A stretch of 64,000 nt of DNA from Cyanidioschyzon merolae (taxonomy: Eukaryota), in assembly GCA_000091205.1 (NCBI GenBank), contig AP006502.2. One strand, written 5' to 3'. Under the pieces are notes generated by a model. That model was not told where the DNA came from and ran no database searches. It worked only from the letters and a program-made list of their open reading frames with translations. Positions 18,536-64,000 of the stretch are shown one piece after another (within the stretch, counting starts at the first letter, position 1; each line of letters starts with the position of its first letter). A program made the translations under genes and the position numbers.

Positions 18536-19051
18536 TCAAGTGGTGTTGCAGTCTCCATGGGAGGCGATCGCCGCGATGACTACAATCTGGGTCCAAGCCT
18601 GCTTTCCATCCAAGCCGAAGAGACACGAGCCTTCTGGAGACAGATCTCGTGCAAGGTATGATGCCAGTGTCGACACTCTGATGTGCTCAATGGGCCGAGG
18701 ATGTCCCACGACCATGGAGGCTACATAACTATCCGCCCGCAGGTGCCTTCCAGCCATTTCGGACCGGACCGCTGTTATCGGTTTCAGTTTATTCAGGCAC
18801 ATTTCAAGTCTGAAAGGCTGTACATCCAAGTTGGATCGCGTCAGCTCCTCGGGTCTCGTCTTCAGGAACGCACCTTGTCTGGTATGGATGGTGGCGTTGA
18901 AGACTCGCTGCGCGAACGCCATGCATTTCCTGCCTCTGGTTGAACTCGTGAATGCAAGGAGTCGTAGAACTGGTCCGCTGTGTTCCATTTGGTGCTGTGC
19001 CAGCTCCCCGTGATTCTCTATTGCCTGAGCGCCCAGCTGGCTTCTCACCAT
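18536..19051 (-). CDS. hypothetical protein (171-aa ORF)
   Basis: ORF only; the surrounding 18.2-19.1 kb has open frames on both strands. No recognisable motif. Confidence 0.15.
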   Translation of the reverse strand: MVRSQLGAQAIENHGELAQHQMEHSGPVLRLLAFTSSTRGRKCMAFAQRVFNATIHTRQGAFLKTRPEELTRSNLDVQPFRLEMCLNKLKPITAVRSEMAGRHLRADSYVASMVVGHPRPIEHIRVSTLASYLARDLSPEGSCLFGLDGKQAWTQIVVIAAIASHGDCNTT

Positions 19052-23635: not shown

Positions 23636-24820
23636 ACTGCGAGCATCGAAGTTTGGAACATCTCTACCAATACGTGTTTTTTGGTCTGGATTGTCTCTGG
23701 TATTCAGGTTCAGCAGTAGGAATGTTTCCGATAGATTGGGGCATGGTGGTGGAATGACTTTATGATATCGCTGCGGGCCTGCGGGGGAAACGCCCTTGCC
23801 TCAACTTCTGGTTCATACTGCGGTGTTCCGGTGGTTGAACCACCGATTCAGAAGTACTTGCCTTGAACGCCAACACCCGAAATTGAAGATGTCAAACGCA
23901 ATCTATATTGCCACGTCTTTGTCAATCGATTCTACTCCATAGATCCCCTCAGAATGACCATCAAAGAGGCAACAGTTTGTGAAGTTTCCATGATACTCGC
24001 ACGAACATTGATGAAGAGACATGGATCGACACGGAATGAAGCAGGCTTCCATGGCAGACAGTCCACGTTGAATCGTACCTTGCCGATTTCGTACTGACAT
24101 GCGAATACTTAATCCATTTGGGACGTGTGCTCGTCTCGCTTCGTGAGGCTTCATTCGGCGTGCGCGGTAAACGCTTATATGGGTAGTCAAAGACACGCGA
24201 ACCGCTGGTTGTAAAGAAGAGCGAAGCGAGCATTCCAACAACATTGCGATTAGCGGCGATGCTGTCGTGTGTTCGCCTGCGACTCGCCGAGCGAACTGGA
24301 TTGTTCTCCAGTGCATCATTCATCAAAAGCGTTCCTCCTGGTTTTTCGTAATCATATGCCTGTATCCTGCTACGACATAACGTCGCTTTAGATCGCTCAA
24401 GAACGGTTATGGAGTTCTTTGCTGAGATCGGCGGTGAGCTGCTCTTCGCACCAGCCTATGCTCGCTGGTGAATCCACTCGATGGCGTCTTCGACGTGGGT
24501 ACCTGCCAATCTACATATCCACGGATCAATAAAAAGCATTCCTTCGCATCGATGAAATCGTTTTCCGAAAAGCTGTTCGGTACATGCACCAGCCCTGAGC
24601 TGTTGTGTTGCCGCTCTGCACATGCGCGAGATGCAGATCGTGACGTAAAAGATTGAAGGAATAGTGGATGTATACAAGGGAAAGGCGAGTTTCAATGGCT
24701 CTGTGCGTCCATAACGTCTTAATGCTGGAGGCGAAACCCGACACAGAGCGTAGGGACTACAGCTCTATTACCTTGGTGCATAACGGAAAAGGCGGTGAAA
24801 GATTCGGTCCCTGCAAGCAA

Positions 24821-26092
24821 GCAAGTTTAGAGCATTCGGGGAACTCCGAGCAGAGCACTGGCGGGGCTCGTTCACGATTTCTGGCGTCCTTGAAGGGTAC
24901 CGAAGAAAGTCTCTGGGGACAACGGAGACGGACGGAGTACCCATGTGCGTGCGTTCTGTGATACCAAGGCTTTAGTCGACAAACAAGACTCTTTTTCACC
25001 CGCTCAACACGCGTGACCAGAGGCAGTTTGTGGTGGACATCCAAATCGAGTTGAACGACACCATGACCGTCGCCGCAACTCCTATTCTAGAGAACGACAC
25101 GAAAGGCAGGAGCAGGAAGCAGATGCTGCTGCTGCTGCTGCTGCTGCTCAGCATTTCCAGCGCTCTACATGATCGAGAGCAGGGCTTCATCGACGGCAGG
25201 AAGCGCCCTAACAAATGAAAGGTCGGCGTCGCGACTTGGAGTTCGACTTCGACGCCCTGAGCACCTTTTCGAGCAAAGCGACACGCGCGGCACGCTTCAT
25301 GAAGGGAGCGTACGTCATCGTCCAAATGGCTTGTGCAGACGGCCTGTGGCAGTTCCTCGGATCGCACAAGCATCGTCTACCGCTTCGGTTGTGCGGAGGC
25401 AGGAAGCGTCCATTCGACTGCTCGATCCAAGAGCTGGGAACGCAAATGACCGATGAGTAACGTCGCTTGGTGGTAGCCAATGGCGCTGGACGTGCTGTGG
25501 CGCAGAAAGGCTGCACGCCTGCTTCTTGAACGACAGCATATGATAAACCATGAATCGATTCTGAAACCACACCCATGGATATGTTCAGGACGACGTGAAC
25601 GCATCACGAGCTCGGGCGCAAACAAAAACTGTTAGAGAAGAAGAGCGTGAGGCGGAGTCAGATGCACGGGATTGTGTACGGTAAGCTGACTTCACGACCG
25701 ATGGCGAGCTAATCGAAAATGAGAAGCATACTCTGGTGTGATTCTACTGCCAACAATGGGCGCAGGCAGTTTGTAGACCGCGACTCGATCGCCTCGATGA
25801 CCATTCGGGTATGTCCCATGCTTCCGGAGCGTTCAGCGGTATTGGCTCGAGCGAACGAACGGACGAACGAACATCCCGATGAGTCGTTGAGTGCTCCATA
25901 TGGATCATTTCCTGAAACGCTGCAGACTTTTGATGAAAATAACCAGCGTCCGGTCGACAGAGGATTCGATTCGCGCCTGCAGCTAGCCATGGTACCGCGC
26001 GTTTCACCAGTACTCCAGAGCTAAAGCGCGATCTCCATGTTTCCACTGGGAGCTGTTTTTCATGGGAGTTGTTGAACGAAAGCGATGGTGCA
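24821..26092. repeat. left arm of a 1.26-kb inverted repeat pair (reverse-complement of 38214..39474, ~98-99% identical)
   Basis: ORF-track proteins on opposite strands are near-identical (24996..25373- vs 38925..39299+; 25744..26106- vs 38201..38554+). Nucleotide homology stops sharply at 'GCAAGTTTAGAGCATTC' on the outer side and at '...GTTGAACGAAAGCG' on the inner side. Contains a (GCT)n microsatellite at 25125-25148. Confidence 0.9.
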
Positions 26093-27039
26093 TTACTCGA
26101 TATCACAGATTATAGACGTCCATGTCTATCAGGTTTATGCATGGGCCACATGCAGCAAGCAAGTCATCGAGGTTTCTGTTGTGCAAAGAGGTGATGGCTC
26201 CCAAGCAAACCGATTTGCGTATGTGTTGGTTTCTTCCGCGTGTGTGTGTGTGTGTGCCAGTCCATGGCTATGGCTGCTATTTATCCAGATGTCATGGTGT
26301 ATACCCCGTGGTACACAAGGATGAGCGCGACAATGTAAAATCTCTTACGTGCGAGACAAATGTCGTCCAAATGCGACCCAGAGAGTTCTCCATGACACCG
26401 TTATAGAATTGGATGGCTGGTGAACGGTTAAGGCCTTGCGGTCCGCCTGTGTACCTTTCAGATATTGTCTTTGCTGTCCGATACTGAAGCAGAATAGTTT
26501 CGGACGTAACCTCTAGACTTGAACGATAGCACTTCACGCGAACCTGTAGATAGTGTTTGATTCGTCGGCAAGTTCCTTGGTCCAGAGGAGTGGTCGAAAC
26601 CAAGCGAACATCGCCGGTCGCTAATGAAAGTACCGGTGATGATTTCCAGTTTCAACCTGTATCAAGCAGTGCCACCAGAATCTAGGCGATGCATCAGACA
26701 ACCGTTTCGAGCCTGACACGTGAGAGATAATGCTTTTGAACCTATCTTGTTCAGTGAAAATCGCACAACTTGGCTTGGGTGTGTTCTACTTTGAAACTTT
26801 CAAGCGCTTCCCTATTCCATGCCTCAGATATCCCTTGTGCCTTTGGTGCACTATGTATATGGCCCCAAGCGCATCTCTTGCATTCTTTTTACTTGGAAAC
26901 CCAGTAAGCGTTTCACGCTTCCCAGGGGTCATCGGCGACCCGGCTTTTGACGTTCCGTAAGACCTCTCCAGCATCACCTCCATAGAATCTTCCTTGGAAA
27001 CCTTCAGGGAATTTCCATACACTTGATTTGGCGATCCTT

Positions 27040-29561: not shown

Positions 29562-31655
29562 GAGACGCGGCCTTCTCGTGACTAGGTCTGTTCCACGTGA
29601 GCGGACTAGACGGGTACCACGGTGAACGCCAGGGATCGCTCACCGATCCCGATGCAAAGACACACAGTCAGGTACAGACACGCACCCTAGTTTATTCCAA
29701 AGCCCAAGTGGCGCTTCGAGGAGCAACGCTATTTTCCCCAGCGCTTTGGTGGGTAATCTGCAGATGTTGTCCTTCACAAAAATTGGTATCTGATTTGAGC
29801 AGCGCCGAGCGCGCTCACGCGTTTTCGATTTCGATCGATGCTATCGCTTCTGGTACCGGGAAAATCTGCGCAACTCGATGAATGCTGAAGGCTGTTTCAC
29901 TTGGAAGGGCAAGCTTCGGTTGGCAGGCTCTGTGAACGTTGTCGCGTCGTCGCTATAGCCGCGTCAGATTACGATAGGCCATGGGGCTGCTCGTCCTGTT
30001 CGTGCCTTGAGATTTTCTGGACTTTATTTTGTAGATATACTGCCACGTCATTCACAGTGCAACAAGAAGCGCACACGGATGCATACACTGTTAAAAGATG
30101 CTCTATCGTCTTCTCTGAGTTGGTTAGTCGAATGTTCCGGGCTGGAATTCATGGCGTCAGCGCAATCAACACGATTTACGACGCCCTCGAATCAGCGTTC
30201 GAAACATACCCGATATCATCATCCAGTTCATACGTACAGGACTCCACTATTCTGCTTTCCCAATGTCTAGTATGCTCAGATCATGCACGCTTCAAGTTTT
30301 TGATGTTCCTGTCTCAAGGAATTAGGTGCGCGGGGCACTGCTCGCTGCTTGATGAACGAGGAAACAAATTCGACGTCGTTCCTTGACGACTTGTTTACAA
30401 GCTCATGCCAAACGTTCGCTCAACTTATCGCGTCAAATAATTGGTTTCGTTCTAAAGATAAAGCCTATTCTTTTTGTGGCCATCGACGAAACGGCATTCG
30501 ACCCCAGCAATGGTATCTCGGGAGGAATATGCCTCAAGACGATCCTGTCTCTTCTGTTTGCTTGATAACAAGTCTTGGACTCGGACTTGAGTCGTCGCAA
30601 CAATCGCACAAAGCGGAGCGTGCGTCACCATTTTGCATAACGGGAGCGTAGACGGATCAAATCTCTGGAACTCCTTCTCAGATTGGATTCTCCGTCCACT
30701 GCCTGATCCGTCAAGAACAATACTGTGTTGCACAAATCCTCTGTCGAATAGAGCAGCTCGTCGTTGCGCGTGCTGCGGACAGAGAACTACCCTGAGGCAT
30801 TACCACAAAGACGCCTGCGATCGCCGGTTGCAGCTTCGGGATCGAAAAACAGTGGTCGGCATGCGGGGTGCCTTCCGTATCCTCCCCGGGGATGTACTGG
30901 TCGGTGAGGCAAGCTTTCATGTGCCGCAGGCCGCCTTGGAGAAGGGAATATGGTGGGCGTATGGAAAAGCCTGGATCTACTCAAGCGGTATCGCTGTGCA
31001 AGTCGTACCGAGGCCGAATACAAAAAACATTCGCAGATGGCTGCTTTTGCATATGCATGAAATGCGCCGACAGCAACCACAACCTGCGAAATCGGGACGC
31101 TATGGCTGCCTTGAACATCAAACGATGTGTGCGGTAATGACGACGAGACACGCGAGGCTGGCGCGAGCGACCCTCATGGGGCATCCTCTCAGGCTAGAGG
31201 TGAACAAGGAGAAGCTGAAGCAGATGGCAAGCGGCCGATCGAAAAAGGCCAGGAGTGGTCTGTGAGTGAGTATTCCCTTGCCCTGCATGGCCGTGGGACA
31301 TTTTCGTTCCATGGAGCATGCTGGTCTGCAACCATTTTTTAGCTGGCAAATCGATTAAACAGGCCAGGGATCGCCGACTGTGCCCTTGGTATCAGCGCGT
31401 GGTGAAGCAAGCATCATTCCACGCCCTACTTGCAAATTCCATAACCCATACCTCTTCTCGGATATACTGGTCACTTTATTCGTTCTATCGTGCGCCGAGT
31501 ACCTGCCCTGATCATCCGCGATAGCGCCTATTCCGCCTGTGCAGTCGCTGCACGGAGAGAGAACGGCGTCGCCGTACCACTGAGGACGTCGGGTCGAGGA
31601 ACGCTACCCCTGATGGGGAGTTAGAGTACATAATCTTTCTGGGAGCCTGGAAGCT

Positions 31656-31684
31656 CTGCATACAGACCTATAGTCTGTATGCAG
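31656..31684. other. perfect 12-bp-stem palindrome (CTGCATACAGAC-ctata-GTCTGTATGCAG) near the inferred left end of Fanzor copy 1
   Basis: Read directly from the sequence. It could be a sub-terminal hairpin of an IS200/IS605-like end, or an unrelated terminator-like hairpin. Confidence 0.4.
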
Positions 31685-32211
31685 CGCGAAGCGATACGCA
31701 AGGAGATGATTGCGACCAGGGTGGTGCCCAAACGCAGCATACCCGCTCCTTGTACCAGAATAAACTGCGTTTCGAACGAGTTGCTCAGATCTCAATTAAG
31801 TAGCTACCGCTGGGGGAGCATGAAGCACTGCTGTGGCAGACACGTCCGGCTCGCGGGACATTTCGCCTAAAGAATAAACTTTCGGCAATCTGGACGCCGT
31901 TTTCCCCTTTTAATGTTTACCATAGAGGGGAGAGAAATTGTCATATCGTTGCTAGTTAGTCGTGAGTCTCTGTTCTTTGTTCTACATAGTGCGCTCGAGA
32001 CGCGCACCGGAGAGATCAGGCAGGCATGAGTTATGACGCGCTTGTCGCTGTTGAATGGAAACGCGATCCAAATCTTTATGATCTACCTGTAAAGTACACG
32101 TTGTATTTGCATTGAAGTCGTAGCAAACTGTAGTTTCAGTTGAATCGTGTTTCAGCGCTCAAGTAAGAATATTCAAGTGCTTTTTCGCGGTTTATAGCAG
32201 AAGCGTTCAAA

Positions 32212-34477
32212 TTGTGTTCTTTCTCGAAAGAAACTAAAAAAAGAAAGTTATGGAAAAGCAAGTGGAAGATCCTCGAGGGCCGGTACCGCCGGCTGCCAGA
32301 AGAAAAACAAAAAACAATATGGAGTCCAGAGGAACAGGAGAGGACGAAGAAGCAAAGGCAGAAGGCTCTACTTCAAAGGCTGCAAGAAAGACGACTGTAC
32401 GACGAGATGGTGGTGAAAGCCTTTCTTCTTGGACATATCAGGTATCCGTACATACAAAAATTGCGAGAGGCCATCAGAAACCGTGTCGATTCATGCTCCA
32501 AGAGTGTTCGCAAGGCTTCTTTAGGACTGATGCGTATGGCCGGGGATATATTCCGCGACGTGACGCACATGGAAACGGTCGAGATTCCGGACGAGTTTTT
32601 CGATAAGACGTGTATAGGTCAGCTGATACTTGGTACAGAGGAATCGCGGAAGGAAAATGGGCTAGTCCATGGCCTCCACGAAAAAAACATCCCTTTTACA
32701 GCTTCAACGGCGCTCGGTACAAGGGTGACCGGGATATTTACAGCTATGGGGCGATGAAGTACCTCACGAACCTGAAGAACCATTTGACAACGAACCTCGA
32801 ACGTTTCATGATACGCGCCGTGTTTGCACTCTACCCGGGCATCTCGCGCAATGGGAAAGGGGCGATGATCAACGGCATCACGAAAGATCGCAGGCATGAA
32901 GATGAGGTCGAATTCGTCGACAAGAAGGCATCAAACGCGTGCACGAATTAAGCTTCTGTAATCCGTGCGGCTGTACAAGAGCACCGTGCGGTACTGGGGT
33001 TGGCGTATCCAACAGACAAGATATCAGAGTTGAAAGAAGATAAGGAAAGATACTATCGCCTCATCCTGCGATATTTCGTGTTTCTGGACTGTGAACTCGA
33101 ACGCAAGGCGGAAATGAAGCTGAGTGAGGAAAAAATGAAGAGTGGGAGAGACGGAAGGCTGTCCTGTTGGGGAAGCGCTTCAAGGTCGGTGCGTTATGCA
33201 ACATCAAGTCACATTTTGTGAGTATCGATTCCGGCGTCCTCTACGGCATCATGAGGGAGATCTGTTCGGAGTTCGATGTTAGCAGGGAGGAATTCTCCCG
33301 GGAAAACCGGGAGACGTACTGGAAGAACATCTTCGATTTCAAACGTCTCAAAATGAGCGAGCAAAAGTTATTCACTGGGGTGATTGAAACCGATGGAGTA
33401 GCCATGTGTGTACGCTATCGGCGGTTGAAGAAAGATCGGCCAGTTCCGCCCTCGGCTGCGCCCGTCACGAAGGATGAAGAAAAGGAGGAGGCTGGTCCTG
33501 TGGCGCAGGAGGTGCAGGATGACGATCTTGTCGTTGGCGCGGCGAAGCATGAAGATGAGAAGGAGGCGGATCCTGTGATGCAGGAGGTGCAGGATAACGC
33601 CTTTATGGTTGGCGCGGCGAAGCATGAAGAAACGAAGAAGGCGGGTCCTGCGGTGCAGAAAGTGCAGGAGAACGACTTTGTCGTTGGCGCGGACCCCGGA
33701 AACACAAAAAGCATAACTATCGCAGCACCGAAGCGTGCAGAAGATGGTACTGATGGTAACTTGCGTCAGAAGGACATGCGCCTTTTGAGGTGCTCGAGAG
33801 CAAGATACTATCGAGAATCAGGTGTAATGAATGCAAGGAAGAAAATTGAGGCTTGGAACGAAGGAATGAAGGATCACCTGGAAGCTTTAAGCGAGGTGAC
33901 TAGACGAGGAGCGGACTTTGAGGCTTTTCGGAAATTCATGGAAGTTCGTGTTGCCCATTGGGATGCGCTGTGGGAGGAGTATACCAAGCCCCGCTGGGCT
34001 CGTTTGCGAATGAATCTATACTGTGGGAAGCAGCAGGCGTTCGCGAATTTTTTTAATGAGTTGAGCGCCCTGAAGGAGGATGAAAGTCAGAGGCTCGTCG
34101 TAGCGTACGGAGCAGGGCGCTGGAAGATCCGAAAAGGGTGTACACCAGCTCCAACAACGAGAACGTACAAGGAGTGTGCACGGCGTTTTGTTACAGTATC
34201 GATAGTTGAGTTTCGAGCATCGTATACACACCATGAGCTGGGCTGTATACTTCAGAGAGTGGAGATGGAAAAGTGCCAACGGAGCCCTGAGGATATAGCA
34301 AAGTACGGACCACTGACGGAGGAGCAAATGGAAAGGAGGGCAAAAATTCGTGGACTACTTGCATTAGTAAGTGCAACTCCCAACGGCACGAAACGTATGG
34401 AATTTGTGAACCGTGACTTTAACGCCGCTATCAATATACGGAGATGTGCGGTACTGGAGAAGAGACCTCCATCATAG
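32212..34477 (+). pseudogene. TnpB-like / Fanzor-type RuvC nuclease gene, interrupted (two frame changes plus one in-frame TAA)
   Basis: Frame A 32212..~32686 (MCSFSKETKKRKLWKSKWK..., Lys/Arg/Glu-rich and NLS-like) runs to an A7 homopolymer at 32681-32687. Frame B continues (KKHPFYSFNGARYKGDRDIYSYG...KKASNACTN) to TAA 32949-32951, after which the same frame stays open (ASVIRAAVQEH...). Frame C 33128..34477 carries RuvC-I '[16 protein letters not shown]', the Fanzor1-like RuvC-II region 'VVAYGAGRW...IVEFRASYTHHELGC' and RuvC-III 'EFVNRDFNAAINIRRCAV'. Copies 2 and 3 conserve all three parts at the amino-acid level. Confidence 0.6.
33482..33705 (+). repeat. 3 x ~76-bp in-frame tandem duplication inside the Fanzor ORF, immediately preceding/including RuvC-I
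   Basis: Units start at 33482, 33560 and 33635 and encode [26 protein letters not shown] / [25 protein letters not shown] / [24 protein letters not shown]. Only the third unit keeps the catalytic Asp. Copy 3 has a single unit. Confidence 0.85.
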
Positions 34478-34762
34478 ACAAGAGAGCACTTTATTGAACA
34501 ATCTGTCCAAGTCGAACTATATGAGAGAAAGTTGGAAGCAGTAGGAGGTGGCCGATCCAAGAAGGCGCGGAGGCATCTGCACAACTGTCGGAGATGATTT
34601 GTCCAAGGCGCGGTTGCCGCCACGACTGTCCACGCCCGACATCGTTCGAGTTTGAACAGCGTTTTGGAGGCGCGTAATCGATTCATTCGGTTCGCGTTGG
34701 AGCTTTTCGCGGCGTTTTCGTTTCGTGACTGCCGGACACGGGTTTTTGTGAGAAACAGCGAC

Positions 34763-34990
34763 ATGGCGTCACCAAAGAAGACTGCGACGAAAGCTGCTTC
34801 AGCACCGAAAAAGGCTGCGGCGAAAACGAAGGGCGAACGGAAACCAAACGCTTACCAAGAGTTTATGAAGGCAGAGAGTGCCAAGATTCGGGAGTACAAC
34901 AAAGCAAAAGGAATCGAAATGAGGCCACCTGATATTTTCAAGGAGTGTGCGAAGAGATGGAACGAGAAAAAGTCCAAGACAAAGGCGTAA
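34763..34990 (+). CDS. small Lys/Ala-rich DNA-binding-like protein (possible HMG-box-like, 75 aa)
   Basis: ATG at 34763 within ORF 34652..34990: MASPKKTATKAASAPKKAAAKTKGERKPNAYQEFMKAESAKIREYNKAKGIEMRPPDIFKECAKRWNEKKSKTKA. It has a histone-H1-like basic N-terminus and weak resemblance to an HMG-box helix pattern. It lies 180 bp downstream of the copy-1 right end. Confidence 0.35.
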   Translation: MASPKKTATKAASAPKKAAAKTKGERKPNAYQEFMKAESAKIREYNKAKGIEMRPPDIFKECAKRWNEKKSKTKA

Positions 34991-35340
34991 AGGCTCTGGA
35001 CTTGCGCGGTGGTGACGGTACTGGTGCTGGCGGCAGCGGGTCGTGCAGCTTGTAGTTCATAGTCGGTGACCTGGACGTTGACGGAGCGGTGGTTATGGTG
35101 GCAGTGCTCGTGGTTGAGCTCGGCCCGTTACCCGCCAACGCGCTGAGGGGTCAAAAAGCAATCGGGGCTGTCGGCGTGTCACCGTTACAAAGCTCTGCTG
35201 TTGCAGGATGCGTTTTCCCTCGCCAGTTTGGACAAGAAGCTGCCCTCATTTCGGGGCGCTGGAACCAGTGCGAGGCAGCGCCGAGGCCAGGAGCATATGT
35301 CGGGGACGTTCACAGAGCTGGTTTCGATTGAGGTTGTGAC

Positions 35341-35385
35341 GGTTGTGGTGGTTATGGTGCTGGTGCTGGTGCTGGTCGTGGTGGA
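35341..35385. repeat. (GGT/GCT)n compound microsatellite
   Basis: ggttgtggtggttatggtgctggtgctggtgctggtcgtggtgg. Confidence 0.9.
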
Positions 35386-36686
35386 ACTGTCAGGTTCGTG
35401 GAGGAATTTACTGGAAAATAAAAAATGGCAACATAAGATCCCGTATGTGTCTTTCAAGTCTTTCGATTCGGCTCTAACAGTGCTGTGTCTCCTCGGTGCA
35501 GTTTTCGCTGATGACGTAGATCCCTGAAACGCGCTGCAGAGGCCGTGGCGTTGCAGGCCTGCGACCCACTAGGTAGCATCTGTGTGTCGTCCATCGTGAT
35601 GCTTCCCTCGCTGCCAGAGACCATACCTTCCAGAGTGGACGCGATGAAGAGAGCGACGTGTGAGCGTGCGCAACTCTTGGGCTGTCAGCATTTTTGGTGT
35701 GTGAAAGTGTCAACCAGGCTCCCGGGTGAGGAAAATCTCTAAAATTGGTATTTCTTCCAGCAGAGGACACCCCAATCTGAGCTCCCTCACTGAACAGGAG
35801 ATTGACAGTGGCACGTGTGATACGGCTTTGCGGCCCTGGGTATCGGAGCACAAAATAGCTGCAACTCCTCGGCGTGCTTTTCCAGTGTGGGATTGATGCA
35901 TCGAAACTGGGTCCATCGGATGCGCGACGGCAACTCGTAACCAGGAGGCGATCTCAGTACCTCTTTAGACGAGTCAACATTCCGATGATCCCAGACCGGA
36001 CTTGCCGTCGAGAGTAGGCGCTTGATCGTTCCCGTGGCTCGCCAGGTGCCAAGCATACCGCGAGCGCTTCGCAGCGCTTGGCGCTCGCGGACCCGGTCGT
36101 CAACCGGATATGCCATGCGCCGGGGCATTTTTCCGCCGCGTGTCTGTTAACCACGGATAAGAGAGCGATATTTCGCCAATCGGAATGCATTGATTCATGG
36201 GCAAAGTAGATCGTTGCGTTTCTATGGATGATAGTGGTCGAGATCGGTCAGAGCTCCGCACGGACCGCGATCGATCGCTCCGATCAGCAAAGCGTGTTTG
36301 GAAGCCGGATCGTTGCCTCGGATCAAGCAATGCCCGATTCGATGATGTTTATTTCCGTCTTTAGACCAGAAAAGTGATGCTTGGAGAACCGCGGGGCTCC
36401 TGCGAAACATCGCGCGCTCGTTGTATAGGTAACCGCATAGGCACAGTGCTCTCAACCAAAGCTACGTGAAAATCATTCCGAAGCTCATGATGCCGCGCCC
36501 GGGGTTGCCGAGCTGCTGCGAAGTATGCCCTCTGCGGCAGACAATGGACAGTACAGCGTGACGACTCACCTGTAGTACGCCCAGCCGTATGGCGTCGTCT
36601 AAACTGGACTCTAGGATAACCAAAATTGGCCGCGTATAAGGAGAGCCTTACATCCGTGTCGTCATGCTCAGCTAGATGAAAACATT

Positions 36687-38213: not shown

Positions 38214-39474
38214 CGCTTTCGTTCAACAATTCCCATGAAAAACAGCTCCCAGTGGAAACATATAGATCGCGCTTTAGCTCTGGAGTACTGGTGAAACGCG
38301 CGGTACCATGGCTAGCTGCAGGCGCGAATCGAATCCTCTGTCGACCGGACGCTGGTTATTTTCATCAAAAGTCTGCAGCGTTTCAGGAAATGATCCATAT
38401 GGAGCACTCAACGACTCATCGGGATGTTCGTTCGTCCGTTCGTTCGCTCGAGCCAATACCGCTGAACGCTCCGGAAGCATGGGACATACCCGAATGGTCA
38501 TCGAGGCGATCGAGTCGCGGTCTACAAACTGCCTGCGCCCATTGTTGGCAGTAGAATCACACCAGAGTATGCTTCTCATTTTCGATTACCTCGCCATCGG
38601 TCGTGAAGTCAGCTTACCGTACACAATCCCGTGCATCTGACTCCGCCTCACGCTCTTCTTCTCTAACAGTTTTTGTTTGCGCCCGAGCTCGTGATGCGTT
38701 CACGTCGTCCTGAACATATCCATGGGTGTGGTTTCAGAATCGATTCATGGTTTATCATATGCTGTCGTTCAAGAAGCAGGCGTGCAGCCTTTTTGCGCCA
38801 CAGCACGTCCAGCGCCATTGGCTACCATCAAGCGACGTTACGCATCGGTCATTTGCGTTCCCAGCTCTTGGATCGAGCAGTCGAATGGACGCTTCCTGCC
38901 TCCGCACAACCGAAGCGGTAGACGATGCTTGTGCGATCCGAGGAACTGCCACAGGTCGTCTGCACAAGCCATTTGGACGATGACGTACGCTCCCTTCATG
39001 AAGCGTGCCGCGCGTGTCGCTTTGCTCGAAAAGGTGCTCAGGGCGTCGAAGTCGAACTCCAAGTCGCGACGCCGACCTTTCATTTGTTAGGGCGCTTCCT
39101 GCCGTCGATGAAGCCCTGCTCTCGATCATGTAGAGCGCTGGAAATGCTGAGCAGCAGCAGCAGCAGCAGCATCTGCTTCCTGTTCCTGCCTTTCGTGTCG
39201 TTCTCTAGAATAGGAGTTGCGGCGACGGTCATGGTGTCGTTCAACTCGATTTGGATGTCCACCACAAACTCCCTCTGGTCACGCATGTTGAGCGGGTGAA
39301 AAAGAGTCTTGTTTGTCGACTAAAGCCTTGGTATCACAGAACGCACGCACATGGGTACTCCGTCCGTCTCCGTTGTCCCCAGAGACTTTCTTCGGTACCC
39401 TTCAAGAACTCCAGAAATCGTGAACGAGCCCCGCCAGTGCTCTGCTCGGAGTTCCCCGAATGCTCTAAACTTGC
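38214..39474. repeat. right arm of the 1.26-kb inverted repeat pair (partner of 24821..26092)
   Basis: See the left-arm entry; (CAG)n at 39150-39170 mirrors the left-arm (GCT)n. Confidence 0.9.
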
Positions 39475-39543
39475 GCGGAGCAACTAGCGGGAGCTAAATG
39501 AGCAGGCCATACAGTACAGCACACAAGCGTCTACGTTAGTGTG

Positions 39544-39879
39544 ATGAGCCTTTATCTAAAATGTGCGAGCAGCATCGAACACATGCTCGGGGAGGCTAAG
39601 GTGCTCGGTTTCGTAAACGGAGTCAGCCTTTCTCTGGAGGGCGCTTCACTGGAATACGAAGTAGCGCAAGATGGAAGCAAGGCGGGCATCACGTTCCAAT
39701 CATCCCTCGGATACAGTGTCCATTTGGCCGAGCCCGAGTTGAACGAGCTGAGCTTGCAGCATCTGAAACGACTCTCGCTCTCGTTGCGACATCTCTTCCG
39801 AACTCGCGAAAATCTCGAGCTCGTCGGTCACCAGCAACGCATTTGTCTCCATCGGCAGCCCAGTGATGTTTTCCATTAG
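39544..39879 (+). CDS. hypothetical small protein (111 aa)
   Basis: ORF 39541..39879 (GTG, then ATG at 39544). No motif recognised. Confidence 0.2.
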   Translation: MSLYLKCASSIEHMLGEAKVLGFVNGVSLSLEGASLEYEVAQDGSKAGITFQSSLGYSVHLAEPELNELSLQHLKRLSLSLRHLFRTRENLELVGHQQRICLHRQPSDVFH

Positions 39880-41485
39880 GATCCACTTTATTGGGCTAGA
39901 ATGGTGAGGCTAAAACGCGCACATGGTGCTCTTTTTGGAGTGTTTGAGATTGGCCTTCATATGATGTTTGAGGTCGGATCGACTTTTTCCTGGTACCTGG
40001 AGAGCGTTTCTTCCAGTCTCTGATCCCACTATCAGGCTGCACTGCATCTTCTGTGCCGAGCATCAGAGGTGCTGTTGCACGACGGTTTGGTCGACGCGTT
40101 CCAGAAGAATGTGAGCAGCTGTCAGCCCTGCATCGGAAACGAGTTTGAACCTACGCTTGACGAGGTGCAGCCAGGCGACTGAGGCTAGACGAGACATGCT
40201 CGAATCAGTAGCCACGAACATCTCTGTGGCATTCTACATCTTTCAGCCTCACGGATGCGAACGAATCGTCTATTGATCCGTAAGCGTAAAAATGACGGTA
40301 GATTGTAAAGAAGACGCTTTGGAGCAGACTGAACCGGGAAGAAGAAGTTCACACGAGGAGCAACACAGCGTAAATCTCAGCTGGGTACGTCTTGATAATA
40401 CTCGAGCGATGGAAAGTGGCATTCTCCAGGAGCAGAGCAAAACAGTTTGGCACGGGAAAGCCAAGAATTGTGCTTCGACGAAGGATATACTTTGAACAAT
40501 CCTGCTTTTTTTGCGATTTGTGATCGACCGCACGATTGCGTTGCTACAGCGGCTGATGTTGTCGTCGTTCTCGCTTGTCTCTTATGTACGCATACCGATT
40601 TTTCTTCTTTGAATACCCATATATAGACCCACCATTTATCCCAAATAGGGGGTCTTGTCAAGTGAGATGAACGCCAGCCACTCCTGCGATAAATGTACTC
40701 TTTTTCGTACGAAATCGACAATGCGTTGTTGAACACACAGGATTCTGGAATGGATGCGCAGTTTTTTGTCCATGCCCGTCCATAGCTCTTCATACCTGTT
40801 CGTGTCGACGCTATAAAAAGCTCATTTGCTGCTGCCTCATCTTGAGTATTTCGTAAAGAAACCTATGGAATAAGATCGATTGACATGTACAGTCGAGTCC
40901 ATAGAATTTGAAATGTTCTATTTCTGGGTGCGCTGTGTTCAGGTAAAGCACGACCCCGAGCGTGACTCATCCACCTGCAGGCCGTAGAATGACGAACTCG
41001 TAGAAGCACAACTGTTTTCCTGCAGCTGTCAGCGACAGCATCCAGTCTTTCAACGATGTTTCCCCACTTTCCAGGAAATACTTCTTTTGTTGAATACGTG
41101 CAAGAAAATCGAGTAAAAACGAAACATGGCATGCTTTAACAGGTATTTCAGAATCTACCGCTCCGCGTACCATGCTCTTCATCGACGACACCCGAGACTT
41201 ACTCGCGAAACGAACCCACCACCGAAAGGCCTATGCAGAAACGCCACACATGGATCAAACCGCACGCTCCGGGGAACGTCGGGCAGTTGCATTGGCGGAA
41301 CGCACACGAGCGTCGATAGAAGGACTCGAGTGTCTTCTCGCTGGTTACTGGGAGCGTGCTGTCGTTCGTCGGACTCGGGCCGTTCCTATTAATTCTTCTT
41401 CAGGAACAGTCCATTCATAAGTGATCCGAGCAACTCAATCGCTGCGTCGACCTCTTGAGTGTCGTTGAAACTTGCGCACTGTGCG

Positions 41486-53243: not shown

Positions 53244-53456
53244 ATCTATTTCCTCTACACCGACACGTTGCTTTCCAGGGAAACGAGTGGGAAGATCGTG
53301 TTCCCTCACTCGCCTAATACAAAGCGCCAATGGCTGCAGAAGCGCTGGTGCGGAGTACGCCGCACGCACGCACCAAACGCCGTTCGAACTTGAACGACGT
53401 CGGGCGTGTACAGTAGTGGCGGGAAAACCGTCTTAGATTAGAAGTCTCCAACTGAC

Positions 53457-56450
53457 GTGCAGATGCCTCCGCGCCTTTTTGGATCGGCCACCTCCTACTG
53501 CTTCCAACTTTCTCTCATATAGTTCGACTTGGACAGATTGTTCAATAAAGTGCTCTCTTGTCTATGATGGAGGTCTCTTCTCCAGTACCGCACATCTCCG
53601 TATATTGATAGCGGCGTTAAAGTCACGGTTCACAAATTCCATACGTTTCGTGCCGTTGGGAGTTGCACTTACTAATGCAAGTAGTCCACGAATTTTTGCC
53701 CTCCTTTCCATTTGCTCCTCCGTCAGTGGTCCGTACTTTGCTATATCCTCAGGGCTCCGCTGGCACTTTTCCATCTCCACCTTCTGAAGTATACACCCCA
53801 GCTCATGGTGTGTATACGATGCTCGAAACTCAACTATCGATACTGCAACAAAACGCCGTGCACACTCTTTGTACGTTCTCGTTGTTGGAGCTGGTGTACA
53901 CCCTTTTCGGATCTTCCAGCGCCCTGCTCCGTACGCTACGACGAGCCTCTGACTTTCATCCTCCTTCAGGGCGCTCAACTCATTACAAAAATTCGCGAAC
54001 ACCCGCTGCTTCCCACAGTATAGATTCATTCGCAAACGAGCCCAGCGGGGCTTGGTATACTCCTCTCCCAGCGCATCCCAGTGGGCAACACGAACTTCCA
54101 TGAATTTCCGAAAAGCCTCAAAGTCCGCTCCTCGCCTAGTCACCTCGCTCAAAGCTTCCAGGTGATCCTTCATTCCTTCATTCCAAGCCTCAATTTTCTT
54201 CCTTGCATTCATTGTACCGGATTCTCGATAGTATCTTGCTCTCGAGCACCTCAAAAGGCGCATGTCCTTCTGACGCAAGTTACCATCAGTACCATCTTCT
54301 GCACGCTTCGGTGCTGCGATGGTTATGATATGTGTGTTTCCGGGGTCCGCGCCAACGACAAAGTCGTTCCCCTGCACTTTCTGCACCGCAGGACCCGCCT
54401 TCTTCGTTTCCTCATGCTTCGCCGCGCCAACCATAAAGGCGTTATCCTGCACCTCCTGCATCACAGGATCCGCCTCCTTCTCATCTTCATGCTTCGCCGC
54501 GCCAACGACAAGATCGTCATCCTGCACCTCCTGCGCCACAGGACCAGCCTCCTCCTTTTCTTCATCCTTCGTGACGGGCGCAGCCGAGGGCGGAACTGGC
54601 CGATCTTTCTTCAACCACCGATAGTGTACATACAATGCTACTCCATCGGTTTCAATCACCCCAGTGAACAACTTTTGCTTGCTCGTTTTGAGACGTTTGA
54701 AATTGAAGGTGTTCTTCCAGTAGGTTTCCCGGTTTTCACCGGTGAAGTCCTCCCTGCTAACATCGAACTCCGGACTGTTCTCCCTCATGATGCCGTAGAG
54801 GACGCCGGAATCGATACTCACAAAGTGTGACTTGATGTTGCATAACGGAACGACGTTGAAGCGCTTCCCCATTCGGACAGCCTTCCGTCTCTCCTACTCT
54901 TCATTTGTCTCTTCACTCAGCTTCATTTCCGCCTTGCGTTCGAGTTCACAGTCCAGAAACACGAAATATCGCAGGATGAAGCGATAGTATCTTTCCTTAT
55001 CTTTTTTCAACTCTGATATCTTGTCTGTTGGATACGCCAACCCCAGTACCGCACGGTGCTCTTGTACAGCCGCACGGATTACAGAAGCTTAATTCGTGCA
55101 CGCGTTTGATGCCTTCTTGTCGACAAATTCGACCTCATCTTCATGCCTGCGATCGTTCGTGATGCCGTTGATCATCGCCCCTTTCCCATTGCGCGAGATG
55201 CCCGGGTAGAGTGCAAACACGGCGCGTATCATGAAACGTTCGAGGTTCGTTGTCAAATGGTTCTTCAGGTTCGTGAGGTACTTCATCGCCCCATAGCTGT
55301 AAATATCCCGGTCACCCTTGTACCGAGTACCGTTGAAGCTGTAAAAGGGATGTTTTTTCGTGGAGGCCATGGACTAGCCCATTTTCCTTCCGCGATTCCT
55401 CTGTACCAAGTATCAGCTGACCTATACACGTCTTATCGAAAAACTCGTCCGGAATCTCGACCGTTTCCATGTGCATCACATCACGATACATCTCCCTCAC
55501 CAAATGCATCAGTCCTGACGACGCCTTGACAATACTCTTGGTGTACGAGTCGACACGTTTTACGATAGCGTCTCGCAACAATTCCCTGTGGGGATCCTTG
55601 ATATGTCCAAGAAGGAAGGTTTTCACCACCTTCTCGTTGTACAGTCGTCTTTCTTGCCGCCTTCGACGTAGGGCCTCTCCCTTTCGGTTCTTCTTCTATT
55701 CCTTTTCTCCTGGACTCGGCACTGTTTTTTGTTTTTTCTGGCAGCCTGCGACCCTGGGCCTCCAGGATCGTGGACATGCTTTTCCATAGCTTTCCTTTTT
55801 GTTTTTTTTTTGAAGAAGAACGCTCTTTGAACCCTTCTGTTATATACTGCAAAAAAACACTAGACTAGAGTTGTTTGAAGTTTGAAACAAAAACGAACTG
55901 AAAGGCTGTACTTTGCAATGACCTCAACGAAAATACAACTTTTAGAACAGAGCTACACGAATGAGATCGAGATCGCGTCTCTCTTCAACGACGGCACGCA
56001 CATCGTGTCAGTTAACTGCGCGATCTCCCAAGCGCGCTCGCTATGCGCAATGCGTGCACCGCGCGAGACGCTACTCGGATCGATGAAGGACACGTGTTCG
56101 ACGCCGCATTGGCACATGCGCGTTAGCATCGCACTGGAGCTGAAATAAAGTATCATAGACCGGAAACTCACGTGGAACGATCTCTTGCTATAAGCTATGT
56201 CGCTCGTGCACATCGCAGTACGGACCTGACATACATGGAGATGTAGGGGCCTGGCACGATACCCCTCGACGCTTCTATCAAAAGCGTAGTCGCGGTAGCA
56301 TCTTACGCTTGTGCGGGTAAGGTATGCATCACACCAGCTTGGAAGGGTTTCGTTCGGTTTATTGATCGTAAATAAAGTAGGCACAGTCGTATAACCAAGT
56401 ATGAATATACGTTTATTCTCTATCCTTGTTATGCATGCAGCGCAGACGCT
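53457..56450 (-). mobile_element. Fanzor/TnpB-like element, copy 2 (inverted relative to copy 1)
   Basis: The rc of 53457.. matches the copy-1 right end exactly up to 'GCGGAGGCATCTGCAC' and then diverges. The internal 3x tandem repeat lies at ~54340-54570. The 5' region is weakly homologous to copy 1 as far as ~56450. Confidence 0.6.
53562..55852 (-). pseudogene. TnpB-like / Fanzor-type RuvC nuclease gene (copy 2), same interruptions as copy 1 plus an extra N-terminal frameshift
   Basis: 436-aa ORF 53562..54872 is ~93% identical to the copy-1 C-terminal ORF (RuvC-I GADPGNT, RuvC-III NRDFNAAINI). ORFs 55089..55370, 55312..55629 and 55481..55852 match copy-1 frames B and A. The homopolymer is A6 here (T6 at 55353-55358 on the + strand). 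Confidence 0.6.
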
Positions 56451-61303: not shown

Positions 61304-63309
61304 TCACGCGCAATGTCCGACGATCATGAGAGGTAAATGAATATCCACTCGCAGACGCCTCCCAGTCTTTCTCGACCGGCCTGCTTCTGTCGGTTTCAGC
61401 ATCTCCCTATACATTTCGACGCTGAAAGGCTGTCCAGCAAAGTTGGCTCGCGTCTGCTCCGCGGGTCTCTTCTTCAGCACCGCGCATCTTCGGATACTGA
61501 TAGCAGCGATAAGGTCTCGGCTCACAGACTCCATGCGTTTCTTGCCGCCGCCTGTACACGGCAATGCGAATAGGCCTCGAACTTTCGCCCTCCTTCCCAT
61601 TTGCTCTTCCGTCAACGCTCCGTACTTTCTTACATCCTCGGGGATCCGCTGACGCTTTTCCATCTCGACCCTCTGAAGTGTACACATCAGCTCGTGGTAC
61701 ACGTAGGACGTTCGGAACTCATCTGTAGGTATCGTGACGAAACGCCGTGCGCTCTCCTTGTACGCTCGTGTCGACGGAGCTGGCGTAGTCCCTTTTTTCG
61801 ACGCCCAGCGCTCTGCCCCGTATGCAACACGAGCCTTTGACTCTCGTCCTCTTTGAGGGCGTTCAGCTCGTTGGAAAAGTTGGCGAATGCACGCTGCTTC
61901 CCACAAAAGAAGCTGATACGCAGACGAGCCCAACGGGGCTTTGTGTACTCTTTCCACAGCGCCTCGTACTGAGAAACGCGAACTTTCACGAATTCCCGAA
62001 AAGCTCGAACGTCCGCCCGACGGCTCGTCACCTGGCTGATCGCTGCTAGGTGTTCTTTGACTCCTGAGTTCCACTTCTCACTCTGTATCCTTGGATTCCT
62101 TACCCAGACTCTCGGTAGCACCCAGCGCTTGAGAACCTCAAAAGACACATGCCTTTCTGACGTAAGTTACCTTCAATGCCGTTTCCCCCGCGTTCGAGTG
62201 CTGCGATGGTCACGGTATCCGTGTTCTCGGGGTCCGCGCCAACGACAAAATCGTTGCTCTGCACCTGCTGTGCCGCAGGGCCCGCCTCCTTTTCTCCACG
62301 CTTCGTCAAAATCGACAACAAAAACGGAATAGGACGATCCGCCTTCAACTGCCGATCGTGCACATACATGGCTACTCCATCGGTTTCGATGACGCCTGTG
62401 AATACCTTTTGCTTGCTCGCATGGAAACGTTTGAAATCGAAGATATTCATCCAGTATGTCTCCCGATTTTCGGCGTTGAACTCTATGTTCCTTACATCGG
62501 ACTCTGGACAGACCTCCTTCATGATGCCGTCAACGGCTGTGGAGTCGATAGTCACGAAATGTGATCTGATGTTGCACATTGGAACCACGTTGAAGCGCGT
62601 CCCCAGAAGCGCCGCCTTCCCTCTCTCTTACTCTTCATTTCTCCCTCACCCAGCTCCTTTTCGGCCTTGCGTTCGAGTTCTCAGTCCAAAAACACGAAAT
62701 AGCGCAGGATGAGGTGATAGTATCTTTCCTTATCTTTTTTCGTATGTGCAACCTTTTTGCTGGGTTGACAAGCCCCAAGACTGCACGGTGCTCTTGTAGA
62801 GCAGCACGGATTCCAGAAGCTTCGTTGTTTCTCCTGCGTGATGTCTTCTTGTCGACGAATTCGATCTCATCTTCACGCTGGCGATGGTTCGTGACGTCAT
62901 TGATGAAGGCCCGTATCCATCTACTAGACAGGTCCGGGTAGAGTGCAAACACGGCGCGTATCATGGAGCGTTCGATGCTCATGGTCAAGTGGTTCTTCAG
63001 GTTCGTGAAGGACTTTTTCGCATCGTAGGTGTAAATATCCGCCTCAGCCTCGTACCGTCTACAGCTGAAGCGATATTCGGCGTAATTCTAGTGGAGAACG
63101 TGCACTCGCTCGTCTCTCCTCGTCGTTCTCCCTGTTCCAAGCATCAGGTTGCTGATATATATCATATGGAAAAATTCCTCCGGAATCTCGACTATTTCCA
63201 TGTGCGTCAGGTCGTCGTGCATCTCGTTCACCAAATGGATTCGTTCTGACGAGGCCTTTATATTACTCATGGAGCACGAGTCGACACGGTTTCTGATGGC
63301 CTCTCGCAA
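61304..63309 (-). pseudogene. degenerate TnpB-like / Fanzor-type nuclease gene (copy 3), frameshifted; RuvC-III Asp/Asn replaced
   Basis: See above. The frame A to frame B junction is in frame here, separated only by one TAG, which shows the ancestral ORF was continuous across that point. Confidence 0.5.
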
Positions 63310-64000
63310 CTTTTCCTTTTACGGATCCATGACATGTTTAAGAAGGTAGGCTTTCGCCACCGTCCAGTCGTACTGTTGTCTTTCCCGCAGCCTTTTCTGC
63401 GTGGGGCCTCCTGCCTTTGCTTCCTTGTCCTCTACTGTTCCTCTAGACTCGGCACTGCTTTTTGTCTTTTCCGGCAGCTGGCAACAGCGGTCCTTAAGGA
63501 TCCTCTATTTGCATCCCCATAACTTTTTTTATTTTTGAAAACGAACGCACTTTGAACGGATCTGATATGAACCGCGAAAAATCACTTGAATAAACTGAAC
63601 TGAGGCTTGAAACACGATTGGATTGAAAGCGCACACTTTGCTATGACTTCAATGCAAATACAACTTGTACTTTAGAGCAACAAGCTAATGATCAGAATTG
63701 CATTTCTCTTCAACTGCGAGATACGAATCGTGTCTCATTCCTGCCAGATTTAGAGGTGCGCGGATCGACCGGGCTTTAGAAAAAAGAACAGATACGAACC
63801 ACTAGCTAGGAAACACAAGTTCTTTGGCAATCTACGGTAAACGTTTCAAGGGGAAAAGGTGTCCACATTGTCGGAAGTTTACCTTCTACGCGGAAAGTGC
63901 CGCAAGCCGGACGAGTCTGCACGTCTTGCGCTTCATGCTCCCTCCAGTGTTGGGTGGTGTTGTAAGATATGAGCTGCTCTTGTGCAATCCGGTTTATTCT
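61400..64000 (-). mobile_element. Fanzor/TnpB-like element, copy 3 (diverged; 5' part runs off the window)
   Basis: ORFs 61304..62074 (…RMESVSRDLIAAISIRRCAVLKKRP, degenerate RuvC-III), 61687..62148, 62100..588 (…FVVGADPENT, RuvC-I, single repeat unit), 62635..62988 and 63088..63309 are homologous to copy-1 frames C, B and A. The 5' non-coding region 63530-64000 is ~80-85% similar to copy 1 31748-32210. Confidence 0.55.

Follow-up and report, generated by a model that had tools for sequence, protein, structure and literature searches.

A premature stop codon common to two interrupted CMe-1A (Fanzor1) copies in Cyanidioschyzon merolae

Fanzor1 proteins are eukaryotic, TnpB-like RuvC nucleases guided by omega RNA. 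One family of transposons carrying a Fanzor1 gene, CMe-1A, has been described in Cyanidioschyzon merolae, with about 150 copies that are each ~80% identical to the consensus, lack terminal inverted repeats (TIRs) and are in some cases intact; it was treated as non-autonomous, and the entry "734 (1)" in Additional file 1 of that report denotes a single-exon family gene (Bao & Jurka 2013, Mob DNA 4:12, PMC3627910). The published 3169-bp consensus has an uninterrupted ORF of 734 amino acids for the Fanzor1 protein. Here we compare with it a stretch of 64,000 nucleotides from contig AP006502.2 of C. merolae (assembly GCA_000091205.1; hereafter the window), in which a preliminary description, made from the letters and their ORFs, had noticed an in-frame TAA and frame changes in repeated elements.

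Three CMe-1A copies in the window

A blastn search of the window with the consensus returned three copies, at 81–87% identity. Copy 1 (31425–34633) corresponds to consensus positions 84–3137 with 84–87% identity, copy 2 (56009–53406) to positions 687–3137 with 85–87%, and copy 3 (64000–61351) to positions 413–3084 with 81%. The ORF remnants of all three align codon by codon with the consensus ORF, and each is interrupted. Judged by sequence, the elements belong to CMe-1A, a ~3.2-kb transposon family without TIRs and with a single gene, already described in this organism; no inverted repeat was found pairing the ends of 31250–34800. The window copies resemble the described family in having a single ORF, no TIRs and a divergence from the consensus of the reported order (~80% identity). 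They differ from the consensus in being disrupted and in carrying two extra in-frame 75-nt units, and its 5' 686 bp are absent from copy 2. Copy 3 has at least six stops and at least seven frameshifts. Very probably, this is the ordinary decay of pseudogenes from a known family, and all three window copies are pseudogenes. The features are collected in Table 1.

A block duplication of an element together with a sulfotransferase gene, considered as the origin of copies 2 and 3, was unsupported, the sulfotransferase paralogues being just 51% identical. Also in the window are fragments of a further Fanzor1 family, a more divergent one.

Table 1. Features of the CMe-1A copies in the window (codon numbers are those of the consensus ORF)
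Feature	Position	Strand	Basis
Copy 1, CMe-1A (Fanzor1) element of nearly full length, ORF pseudogenised	31425..34660	+	blastn; homology to other copies stops at ~34660
Poly-A-rich stretch, +1 nt frameshift at codon 17	32290..32315	+	lesion table against consensus; three-frame translation
Core tract, copies 1 and 2 96.9% identical (98.9% in 32571–33100), ~2.0 kb	32571..34586	+	carries the TAA; putative gene-conversion/recombination tract
A7 homopolymer, +2 nt frameshift at codon 144, frame A to frame B (first junction)	32681..32687	+	run-length comparison
Nonsense GAA>TAA at codon 233 (Glu)	32949..32951	+	comparison of consensus, copies and loci
Coding remnant from TAA to second junction, in the helical N-terminal half of Fanzor1	32952..33127	+	homology, dN/dS
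A6 homopolymer, -1 nt frameshift at codon 294, frame B to frame C (second junction)	33130..33135	+	run-length comparison
Tandem array of three in-frame 75-nt units, with its end in the RuvC-I strand	33468..33692	+	TRF: period 75, 3.0 copies
RuvC-I motif VVGADPGNT, Asp codon 33692–33694	33680..33706	+	translation, alignments
RuvC-II motif IVEFRASYT, Glu kept (consensus VDEFRTSYT)	34202..34228	+	translation, alignment
RuvC-III motif NRDFNAAINI	34409..34438	+	translation, alignment
Late premature TAG at codon 692, ~40 codons ahead of the consensus stop	34475..34477	+	lesion comparison
Copy 2, 5'-truncated CMe-1A element (consensus 687–3137)	53406..56009	-	blastn to consensus
Copy 2 lesions: TAA; A6 run; private TAG; TAG	55091–55089; 55358–55353; 54896–54894; 53564–53562	-	lesion comparison
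Copy 3, older CMe-1A element, continuing past the end of the window	61351..64000	-	81% identical to consensus

Relationship to Fanzor1 nucleases

The Fanzor1 clade containing CMe-1A comprises 2325 clusters at 50% identity, and in a look-up of the clusters of the family protein the only name returned was "hypothetical protein". A profile of the family (alignment A4) searched against the PDB matched SpuFz (8gkh, E=2e-12), PpFz (9cf0, E=3e-12) and GtFz (9cer, E=0.012), and nothing else. These matches came once the divergent clade of protein P0049 had been added to the alignment; the profile of the shallow alignment A3 had no match in the PDB. The AF2 model of P0049, which is a 34%-identical relative and not a window protein, had a pLDDT of 86.5; a model of the family protein P0001 made with A3 was unusable (pLDDT 36.6). 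In Foldseek, the seven top matches of the P0049 model were all Fanzor1 (SpuFz, PpFz and GtFz; E=5e-18 to 4e-14, TM 0.53–0.71), with Cas12f and TnpB ranking below them (E=1e-6 to 1e-3), in agreement with the Fanzor1 fold of REC/WED plus a split RuvC.

The catalytic triad (D in RuvC-I, E in RuvC-II and RD in RuvC-III) is present in the window copies. The D-P-G of RuvC-I is invariant in alignment A5 (7 sequences) and near-invariant (at least 90%) in A4 (56 sequences), and the adjoining 75-nt repeat ranges from one to ~6 units across relatives. Pfam gave nothing significant for the ORF pieces or for the proteins P0001, P0049, P0048 and P0008; a weak match to Cas12f1-like_TNB (E=0.23) fell on P0001 residues homologous to the RuvC-III motif. 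The C4 zinc finger motif placed between RuvC-II and RuvC-III by Bao & Jurka (2013) is absent from the window copies and from the CMe-1 consensus, which have two Cys and two His only ("...TSYTHHELGC...EKC..."), and none in the P0049 clade. Because the published family does not follow the C4 motif either, the filing under Fanzor1 rests on identity to the consensus, the profile and the fold.

Compared with the solved Fanzor1 structures (SpuFz1 8GKH/9CEU, PpFz1 9CF0 and GtFz1 9CER), the family agrees in profile, best fold match and RuvC motifs, but has only 11–16% sequence identity to them and does not conserve the zinc-ribbon cysteines. Bacterial TnpB (IS200/IS605) and Cas12f share the RuvC fold at lower scores, with the weak Cas12f1-like_TNB match falling on the RD-NAA-NI motif; unlike them, the family has a much larger helical N-terminal half, a eukaryotic host and no TnpA partner in the element. 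The ~270 nt of the 3' part, where a Fanzor1 element would encode its cognate omega RNA, are conserved in six loci with weak covariation support for a structure (7/67 pairs, covariation term +3.31), and an Rfam scan of 31500–35200 returned no match. Homology suggests a nuclease and omega-RNA function for the CMe-1A family.

Coding sequence across the TAA codon

In line with the preliminary description, the TAA of copy 1 ends an ORF (32610–32951) whose frame stays open on to 33221, and open homologous coding sequence flanks this codon; in copy 3 the homologous codon is not a stop (GAA, E; "...NNEASGIRAALQEHRAVLG"), and the TGA at 33125–33127 is the final stop before the long frame-C ORF that carries the nuclease part. 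The codon is GAA in the consensus, in copy 3 and in the related loci L001, L002 and L003, and TAA in copy 1, in copy 2 and in L004, a metagenome contig whose locus is orthologous to copy 2 (98.2% identical over 4980 bp). All 195 family proteins spanning the site have a sense codon there, 71 of them Glu.

Copies 1 and 2 had also been said to have the same stop and the same frame offsets. The stop is indeed found in both, but the offsets differ at both junctions. At the first, the run is A7 in copy 1 (+2 nt), A6 in copy 2 (+1 nt) and A5, in frame, in L001, L002, L003 and L004, and in the consensus an A4 run precedes a different sequence; copy 2 and L004 differ here in run length only. At the second, the consensus reads GAGGAAAAAAATG (A7), copy 1 GAGGAAAAAATG, and copy 2 and L001 GAAGAGACAAATG, in frame. 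The 1-nt loss of copy 1 (A7>A6, 33130–33135) is found in L004 and not in copy 2, in which a private TGG>TAG takes its place (54896–54894) and the middle and nuclease parts share one frame: the translation of 55370–53562 reads "...KAEMKLSEETNEE" up to the stop and "ERRKAVRMGKRFNVVPLCNIK..." beyond it. Only the TAA and the late TAG (34475 in copy 1, 53564 in copy 2), which replaces TTG (Leu) of the consensus, are lesions common to the two copies. The A-rich stretch in which the earliest frameshift of copy 1 falls sits between an ATG (32250) and the frame A of the preliminary description, and all three single-site frameshifts of this copy lie in an A-run or A-rich stretch.

A search for uninterrupted relatives without the TAA or either offset, as suggested in the preliminary description, yielded the CMe-1A consensus, which has GAA at the site and no frame change, and P0001 (752 aa, from L001), which reads through all three sites and, as the best "intact" relative, is itself shifted by -1 at consensus codon 17 and terminates earlier, at codon 700. 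Since such relatives exist, the window copies appear to be simply dead.

The TAA site and the second junction are crossed in one ORF by 193 of the 318 retrieved family proteins. The remnant between them in copy 1 has 74–83% amino-acid identity to family ORFs, and its HRxVLG and LRY columns are invariant among the seven divergent members of A5. Between family lineages, dN/dS is 0.27–0.48 in this segment (~180 nt) and 0.36–0.41 in the whole gene. The family gene evolves under purifying selection, and the stretch is coding and not an intron, because its dN/dS between lineages is ~0.3–0.5. The earlier suggestion that ~200 nt are removed or recoded is contradicted by this conserved coding sequence in the consensus and the 193 ORFs, and by a stop and shifts that are missing in relatives and differ between copies.

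Splicing out of a spliceosomal intron, to join the middle and nuclease parts, is exceedingly improbable: all 37 formal GT...AG pairs that would leave the frame open lack both a strong donor and a pyrimidine tract, and their number is what chance gives in purine-rich sequence. Splicing would lose at least 60 codons conserved in the consensus and the 193 ORFs, invariant residues included, from a stretch with dN/dS below 0.5; moreover, copy 2 needs no frame correction there, and the family gene is listed as single-exon (PMC3627910).

Recoding, with read-through of the TAA and either programmed ribosomal frameshifting or slippage of transcription at the A-runs, would produce a full-length protein, and both frame changes do lie in A6/A7 runs, slippery for polymerases, with an open homologous frame continuing after both shared stops. 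We consider it very improbable. Neither the stop nor the run lengths are conserved, relatives having GAA and in-frame A5/A7 or interrupted runs, and run lengths differ even among copy 1, copy 2 and the orthologous L004. Copy 1 would require four events (+1, +2, TAA and -1) besides the late TAG; the host genes of the window are long standard-code ORFs, and the Rfam scan offered no element. An alternative code with TAA and TAG as Glu, raised because the TAA replaces a Glu codon, was rejected on account of the same host genes, and also because the TAG of copy 2 and the TAA of copy 3 replace Trp/Ser codons.

Errors of sequencing or assembly in the homopolymers are an unlikely source of the frame changes, as opposed to the TAA; if they were the source, copy 1 would have fewer real lesions. 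The placement of its single-site frameshifts in A-rich sequence would fit such errors, as would the A6 of copy 2 against the A5 of L004. However, the same kind of variation is seen in independent metagenome assemblies, L004 has the second-junction A6 of copy 1, and the TAA and TAG substitutions disable the ORF regardless. In the favoured reading, ordinary decay, the TAA is a plain GAA>TAA nonsense substitution, the frame changes of copy 1 are changes in homopolymer length (A5>A7 and A7>A6) with decayed coding sequence between them, and the lesions other than the shared ones arose independently in each copy.

For copy 1 against copy 2, and likewise for copy 2 against L004, dN/dS is 0.54, a value below 1 that is unexpected under strictly neutral decay. 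It could reflect variation imported by conversion from selected copies, a bias of the Nei-Gojobori method or residual constraint.

Mosaic identity of copies 1 and 2

Along their shared length, copies 1 and 2 are 76.2%, 96.9% and 74.3% identical in three segments, the low-identity ends spanning 375 bp on the 5' side and 75 bp on the 3' side, with sharp boundaries at ~32570 and ~34586. There are also patches in which L004, the orthologue of copy 2, agrees with copy 1 and not with copy 2; they show an apparent patchwork exchange of the L004 locus with copy 1 after the strains split. RIP-like mutation was considered and rejected, the transition/transversion ratio being only ~1.2–1.6.

The ~2-kb core probably owes its near-identity to ectopic gene conversion or recombination, or else to a single recombinant source, and the TAA would be common to copies 1 and 2 for this reason. 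A substitution shared within a 98.9%-identical tract is expected by descent or conversion, so it is no coincidence requiring a functional explanation. Both the sharp tract of near-identity in diverged paralogues and the patchwork with the orthologous locus resemble concerted evolution of dispersed repeats by ectopic gene conversion; from the comparison of copies 1 and 2 and L004, conversion is the presumed mechanism of sharing, with a recombinant master element as the alternative.

Fanzor and TnpB are not the transposase, as established for TnpB, so loss of the protein alone does not block copying or conversion of the element. A nuclease-dead element can thus still move, and copies 1 and 2 might be sister insertions of one defective, TAA-bearing master transposed in trans, which would account for their two common stops, the TAA and the codon-692 TAG, as well as the 97–99% identity of their 2-kb core. 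We regard this as doubtful. Sister insertions would be similar throughout, but the ends of the two copies are only 74–76% identical; copy 2 begins at consensus position 687, copy 1 reaches position 84, and the patches exchanged between L004 and copy 1 came after the strain split. A conversion or recombination tract of ~2 kb therefore seems to explain the sharing of the TAA better than the transposition of a dead copy does. The earlier view, in which the sequence was defective before it spread, broadly holds for the TAA but does not extend to the frame defects, which the two copies do not have in common.

The tract and the patchwork might also have been left by frequent homology-directed repair among dispersed elements, possibly triggered by omega-RNA-guided cleavage from Fanzor1 copies that are still active. 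This is quite improbable; if true, it would parallel in a eukaryote the retention or homing of transposons driven by TnpB, and such repair would spread even inactivating mutations like the TAA among copies.

Beyond annotation these results have little import: none of the Fanzor1 copies and fragments in the window warrants annotation as an intron-containing or recoded gene. More generally, a nonsense mutation common to dispersed repeats can stem from a conversion tract and need not imply mobilisation of a dead element. Mining for Fanzor nucleases may profit from this Fanzor1 clade, which is large, lacks the cysteines of the canonical zinc ribbon and has, next to the RuvC-I strand, an in-frame 75-nt repeat of variable unit number.

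Copies of a published Fanzor1 transposon

The window is intron-poor eukaryotic DNA of ~54% G+C, with long unbroken host ORFs (WDR75, Nrap, a Twinkle-like helicase and sulfotransferases), and one element of ~2.6-3.2 kb is present in it three times (copies 1-3). The transposon family of these copies was already published in 2013: CMe-1A of Cyanidioschyzon merolae has ~150 copies, each ~80% identical to a ~3-kb consensus, with no TIRs and no determinable TSDs, and some copies still encode an intact Fanzor1 (Bao & Jurka 2013, PMC3627910). The Additional files of that paper provide a 3169-bp CMe-1A consensus and the 734-aa CMe-1 protein (PMC3627910). We found no terminal inverted repeats flanking copy 1. 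Given the match of the three copies to this consensus, the window very probably derives from C. merolae or from another cyanidialean close to it. A strong coding-strand purine skew marks the elements (GC skew ~+0.2 and AT skew ~+0.15 in the 2-kb bins that cover them, 32001-36000, 54001-56000 and 62001-64000). The Sulfotransfer_2 paralogs next to copies 2 and 3 are too diverged (51% identity over 248 aa) to show a joint block duplication.

Overall, the window contains at least seven Fanzor1-derived segments. A second pseudogene has its best match in the family protein P0177 (residues 72-680), spread across three frames; its 3' 1.3 kb has an inverted duplicate 12 kb away (98-99% identity), and the two arms of this duplication bracket copy 1.

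Features of the window; codon numbers are those of the consensus ORF
Feature	Position	Strand	Match or context	Changes relative to the consensus
Copy 1	~31425-34660	+	blastn, consensus 84-3137, 84-87% identity	+1 nt codon 17; +2 nt codon 144; TAA codon 233; -1 nt codon 294; in-frame +150 nt; TAG codon 692
Copy 2	~56009-53406	-	blastn, consensus 687-3137, 85-87% identity	-1 nt codon 17; TAG codon 31; +1 nt codon 144; TAA codon 233; TAG codon 298; same +150 nt as copy 1; TAG codon 692
Copy 3	64000-61351	-	blastn, consensus 413-3084, 81% identity	at least 6 stops, at least 7 frameshifts
Sulfotransfer_2 paralog	52233-53369	-	downstream of copy 2	
Sulfotransfer_2 paralog	58163-59236	-	downstream of copy 3	
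In-frame 75-nt tandem repeat, copy 1	33468-33692		directly upstream of and including the RuvC-I strand	
In-frame 75-nt tandem repeat, copy 2	54347-54571		directly upstream of and including the RuvC-I strand	
Second, far more divergent Fanzor1-like pseudogene	38442-40239	-	~35% amino-acid identity to CMe-1	
Second, far more divergent Fanzor1-like pseudogene	24820-26094	+	~35% amino-acid identity to CMe-1	
Fragment like the family C-terminal (RuvC) part	18668-19105	-	~35-45% amino-acid identity	
Fragment like the family C-terminal (RuvC) part	30991-31490	+	~35-45% amino-acid identity	

Relationship to Fanzor1 nucleases

Pfam and PDB searches with a shallow family alignment gave no matches. Once a divergent clade (found with the family protein P0049) was included, the profile matched only Fanzor1 structures in PDB: SpuFz (8gkh, E=2e-12), PpFz (9cf0, E=3e-12) and GtFz (9cer, E=0.012). 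The window protein aligns end to end with P0049 at 34% identity. In Foldseek, the best seven PDB matches of the P0049 AF2 model (pLDDT 86.5, pTM 0.82) were all Fanzor1 (E=5e-18 to 4e-14, TM 0.53-0.71), followed by Cas12f, TnpB and Fanzor2. The window copies have the D of RuvC-I, the E of RuvC-II and the RD of RuvC-III. A C4 zinc ribbon would be expected between RuvC-II and RuvC-III (34229-34408 in copy 1), and its cysteines are not conserved in the family alignment: the CMe-1 clade has only H-H-x3-C...C in this region, and they are missing altogether from the P0049 clade. The fold prediction still matches Fanzor1. Fanzor1 proteins cut DNA under the guidance of an omega RNA (PMC11423790; structures 8GKH, 9CEU-9CF3), and by homology the family would act by the same mechanism. 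Conservation among six loci covers the 3' ~270 nt of the element, with weak support for any specific RNA fold. At the 3' end of copy 1, conservation reaches past the conserved core of the protein, and there is a small terminal hairpin (GTTCGAG-TTTGAAC); 34480-34660 is a candidate omega-RNA scaffold, for which covariation from six loci is weak. The family is large: a profile search of 1.84 billion representatives returned 2325 clusters at E<=1e-3, of which 389 reach E<=1e-30. Among the clusters, proteins of 600-700 aa that match over their full length are numerous and sit mostly on 2-4 kb contigs.

Lesions of the copies and coding capacity of the interrupted interval

The consensus ORF is uninterrupted and reads '...STNEASVIRAAIQEHRAVLG...' and '...AEMELSEEKNEESERRKAALMGKRFNVVPLCNIK...', and therefore has GAA at the site of the copy 1 TAA and a single frame across both frame junctions. 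The reconstructed protein has 49 close metagenome homologs; P0001 (752 aa; 100% query coverage, 73% identity) is a single ORF at 6001-8259 of L001, a locus on a 49-kb eukaryotic contig.

The TAA of copy 1 (32949-32951) is real; it is in frame with the ORF 32610-32951, whose frame is open to 33221, and the TGA at 33125-33127 is the final stop ahead of the 436-codon frame-C ORF. Copy 2 carries the same TAA (55091-55089), and the corresponding codon of copy 3 is GAA. The preliminary description was thus correct that copies 1 and 2, and not copy 3, have this stop, but mistaken in calling their frame offsets identical, since the middle and nuclease parts of copy 2 are contiguous in one frame. Translated in a single frame from 55370 to 53562, copy 2 is interrupted by a stop at two places: the TAA that it shares with copy 1, and a TAG of its own in place of the Trp codon in 'NEEWERRKA'. 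Among the window copies, only copy 1 lost one A from the poly-A run of the second junction (GAGGAAAAAAATG in the consensus vs GAGGAAAAAATG at 33126-33137). The run at the first junction is A7 in copy 1 (32681-32687, +2 nt), A6 in copy 2 (+1 nt) and A5 in the relatives that read through. The A7 run at consensus codon 17 (32290-32315 in copy 1, with counterparts in copies 2 and 3 and metagenome loci L001, L003 and L004) is a frameshift hot spot, shifted by +1 or -1 vs the consensus in 6 of 7 sequences, including the otherwise open L001/P0001. Units of the 75-nt repeat number one in the consensus and copy 3, two in L002/L003, three in copies 1 and 2 and L004, four in L001 and ~6 in the family protein P0009.

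That the ~200-nt stretch with the TAA is spliced out or recoded was also proposed, and we reject it. The interval 32952-33127 encodes conserved protein, with HRxVLG and LRY columns that do not vary among seven aligned, divergent members, and its Nei-Gojobori dN/dS between family lineages is 0.27-0.48 (0.36-0.41 for the gene). Among the 318 family proteins gathered for this analysis, 195 extend across the TAA site and have a sense codon there (Glu in 71); in 193 a single ORF covers this site and the second junction, and in 163 it covers all three sites. A frame could be restored by 37 formal GT..AG pairs, but each would remove at least 60 conserved codons, and neither a plausible donor nor a pyrimidine tract accompanies any of them. 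Nor is programmed recoding supported, as the stop and the A-run lengths vary among relatives, even within the orthologous pair formed by copy 2 and L004 of another strain; an Rfam scan of the region gave no matches. The observation named beforehand as refuting was a copy elsewhere that is uninterrupted and has neither the TAA nor the offsets, and such a copy exists.

Origin of the shared stop codon

Similarity between copies 1 and 2 is uneven along the element: 76.2% identity in 32195-32570 (89 of 374 sites differ), 96.9% in 32571-34586 (98.9% in the TAA-bearing 32571-33100) and 74.3% in 34587-34660, with sharp edges between segments. Over 4980 bp, window 50920-55901 shares 98.2% identity with metagenome contig L004, which therefore represents the locus orthologous to copy 2 in a different strain. 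L004 carries the TAA, has an in-frame A5 at the first junction, and at the second has the A6 deletion of copy 1. Within 33081-33480, 19 of its sites agree with copy 1 and not with copy 2, while its flanks agree with copy 2. Judged from these sequences, such a mosaic is what ectopic gene conversion or recombination between dispersed copies leaves behind, and either process would account for the common TAA without transposition of a dead element; possibly, the mosaic came instead from a recombinant master element. We saw no RIP-like bias (transition/transversion ratio ~1.2-1.6). The dN/dS of copy 1 vs copy 2 is 0.54, below the expectation for neutral decay; a bias of the method, or variation brought in from copies under selection, may be the cause. 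The proposal that the defects predate the separation of copies 1 and 2 and were propagated thus stands for the TAA only, most likely through a conversion tract, and not for the frame offsets, which are not shared. Another defect found in more than one locus or sample is GAG>TAG at consensus codon 137, common to metagenome loci L002 (3995-3997) and L003 (1757-1759), from different samples.

The TAA and the frame changes are ordinary mutational decay of transposon copies, by one nonsense substitution and homopolymer slippage. Since the Fanzor1 nuclease is not the transposase, its inactivation does not keep an element from being copied, converted or mobilised in trans.
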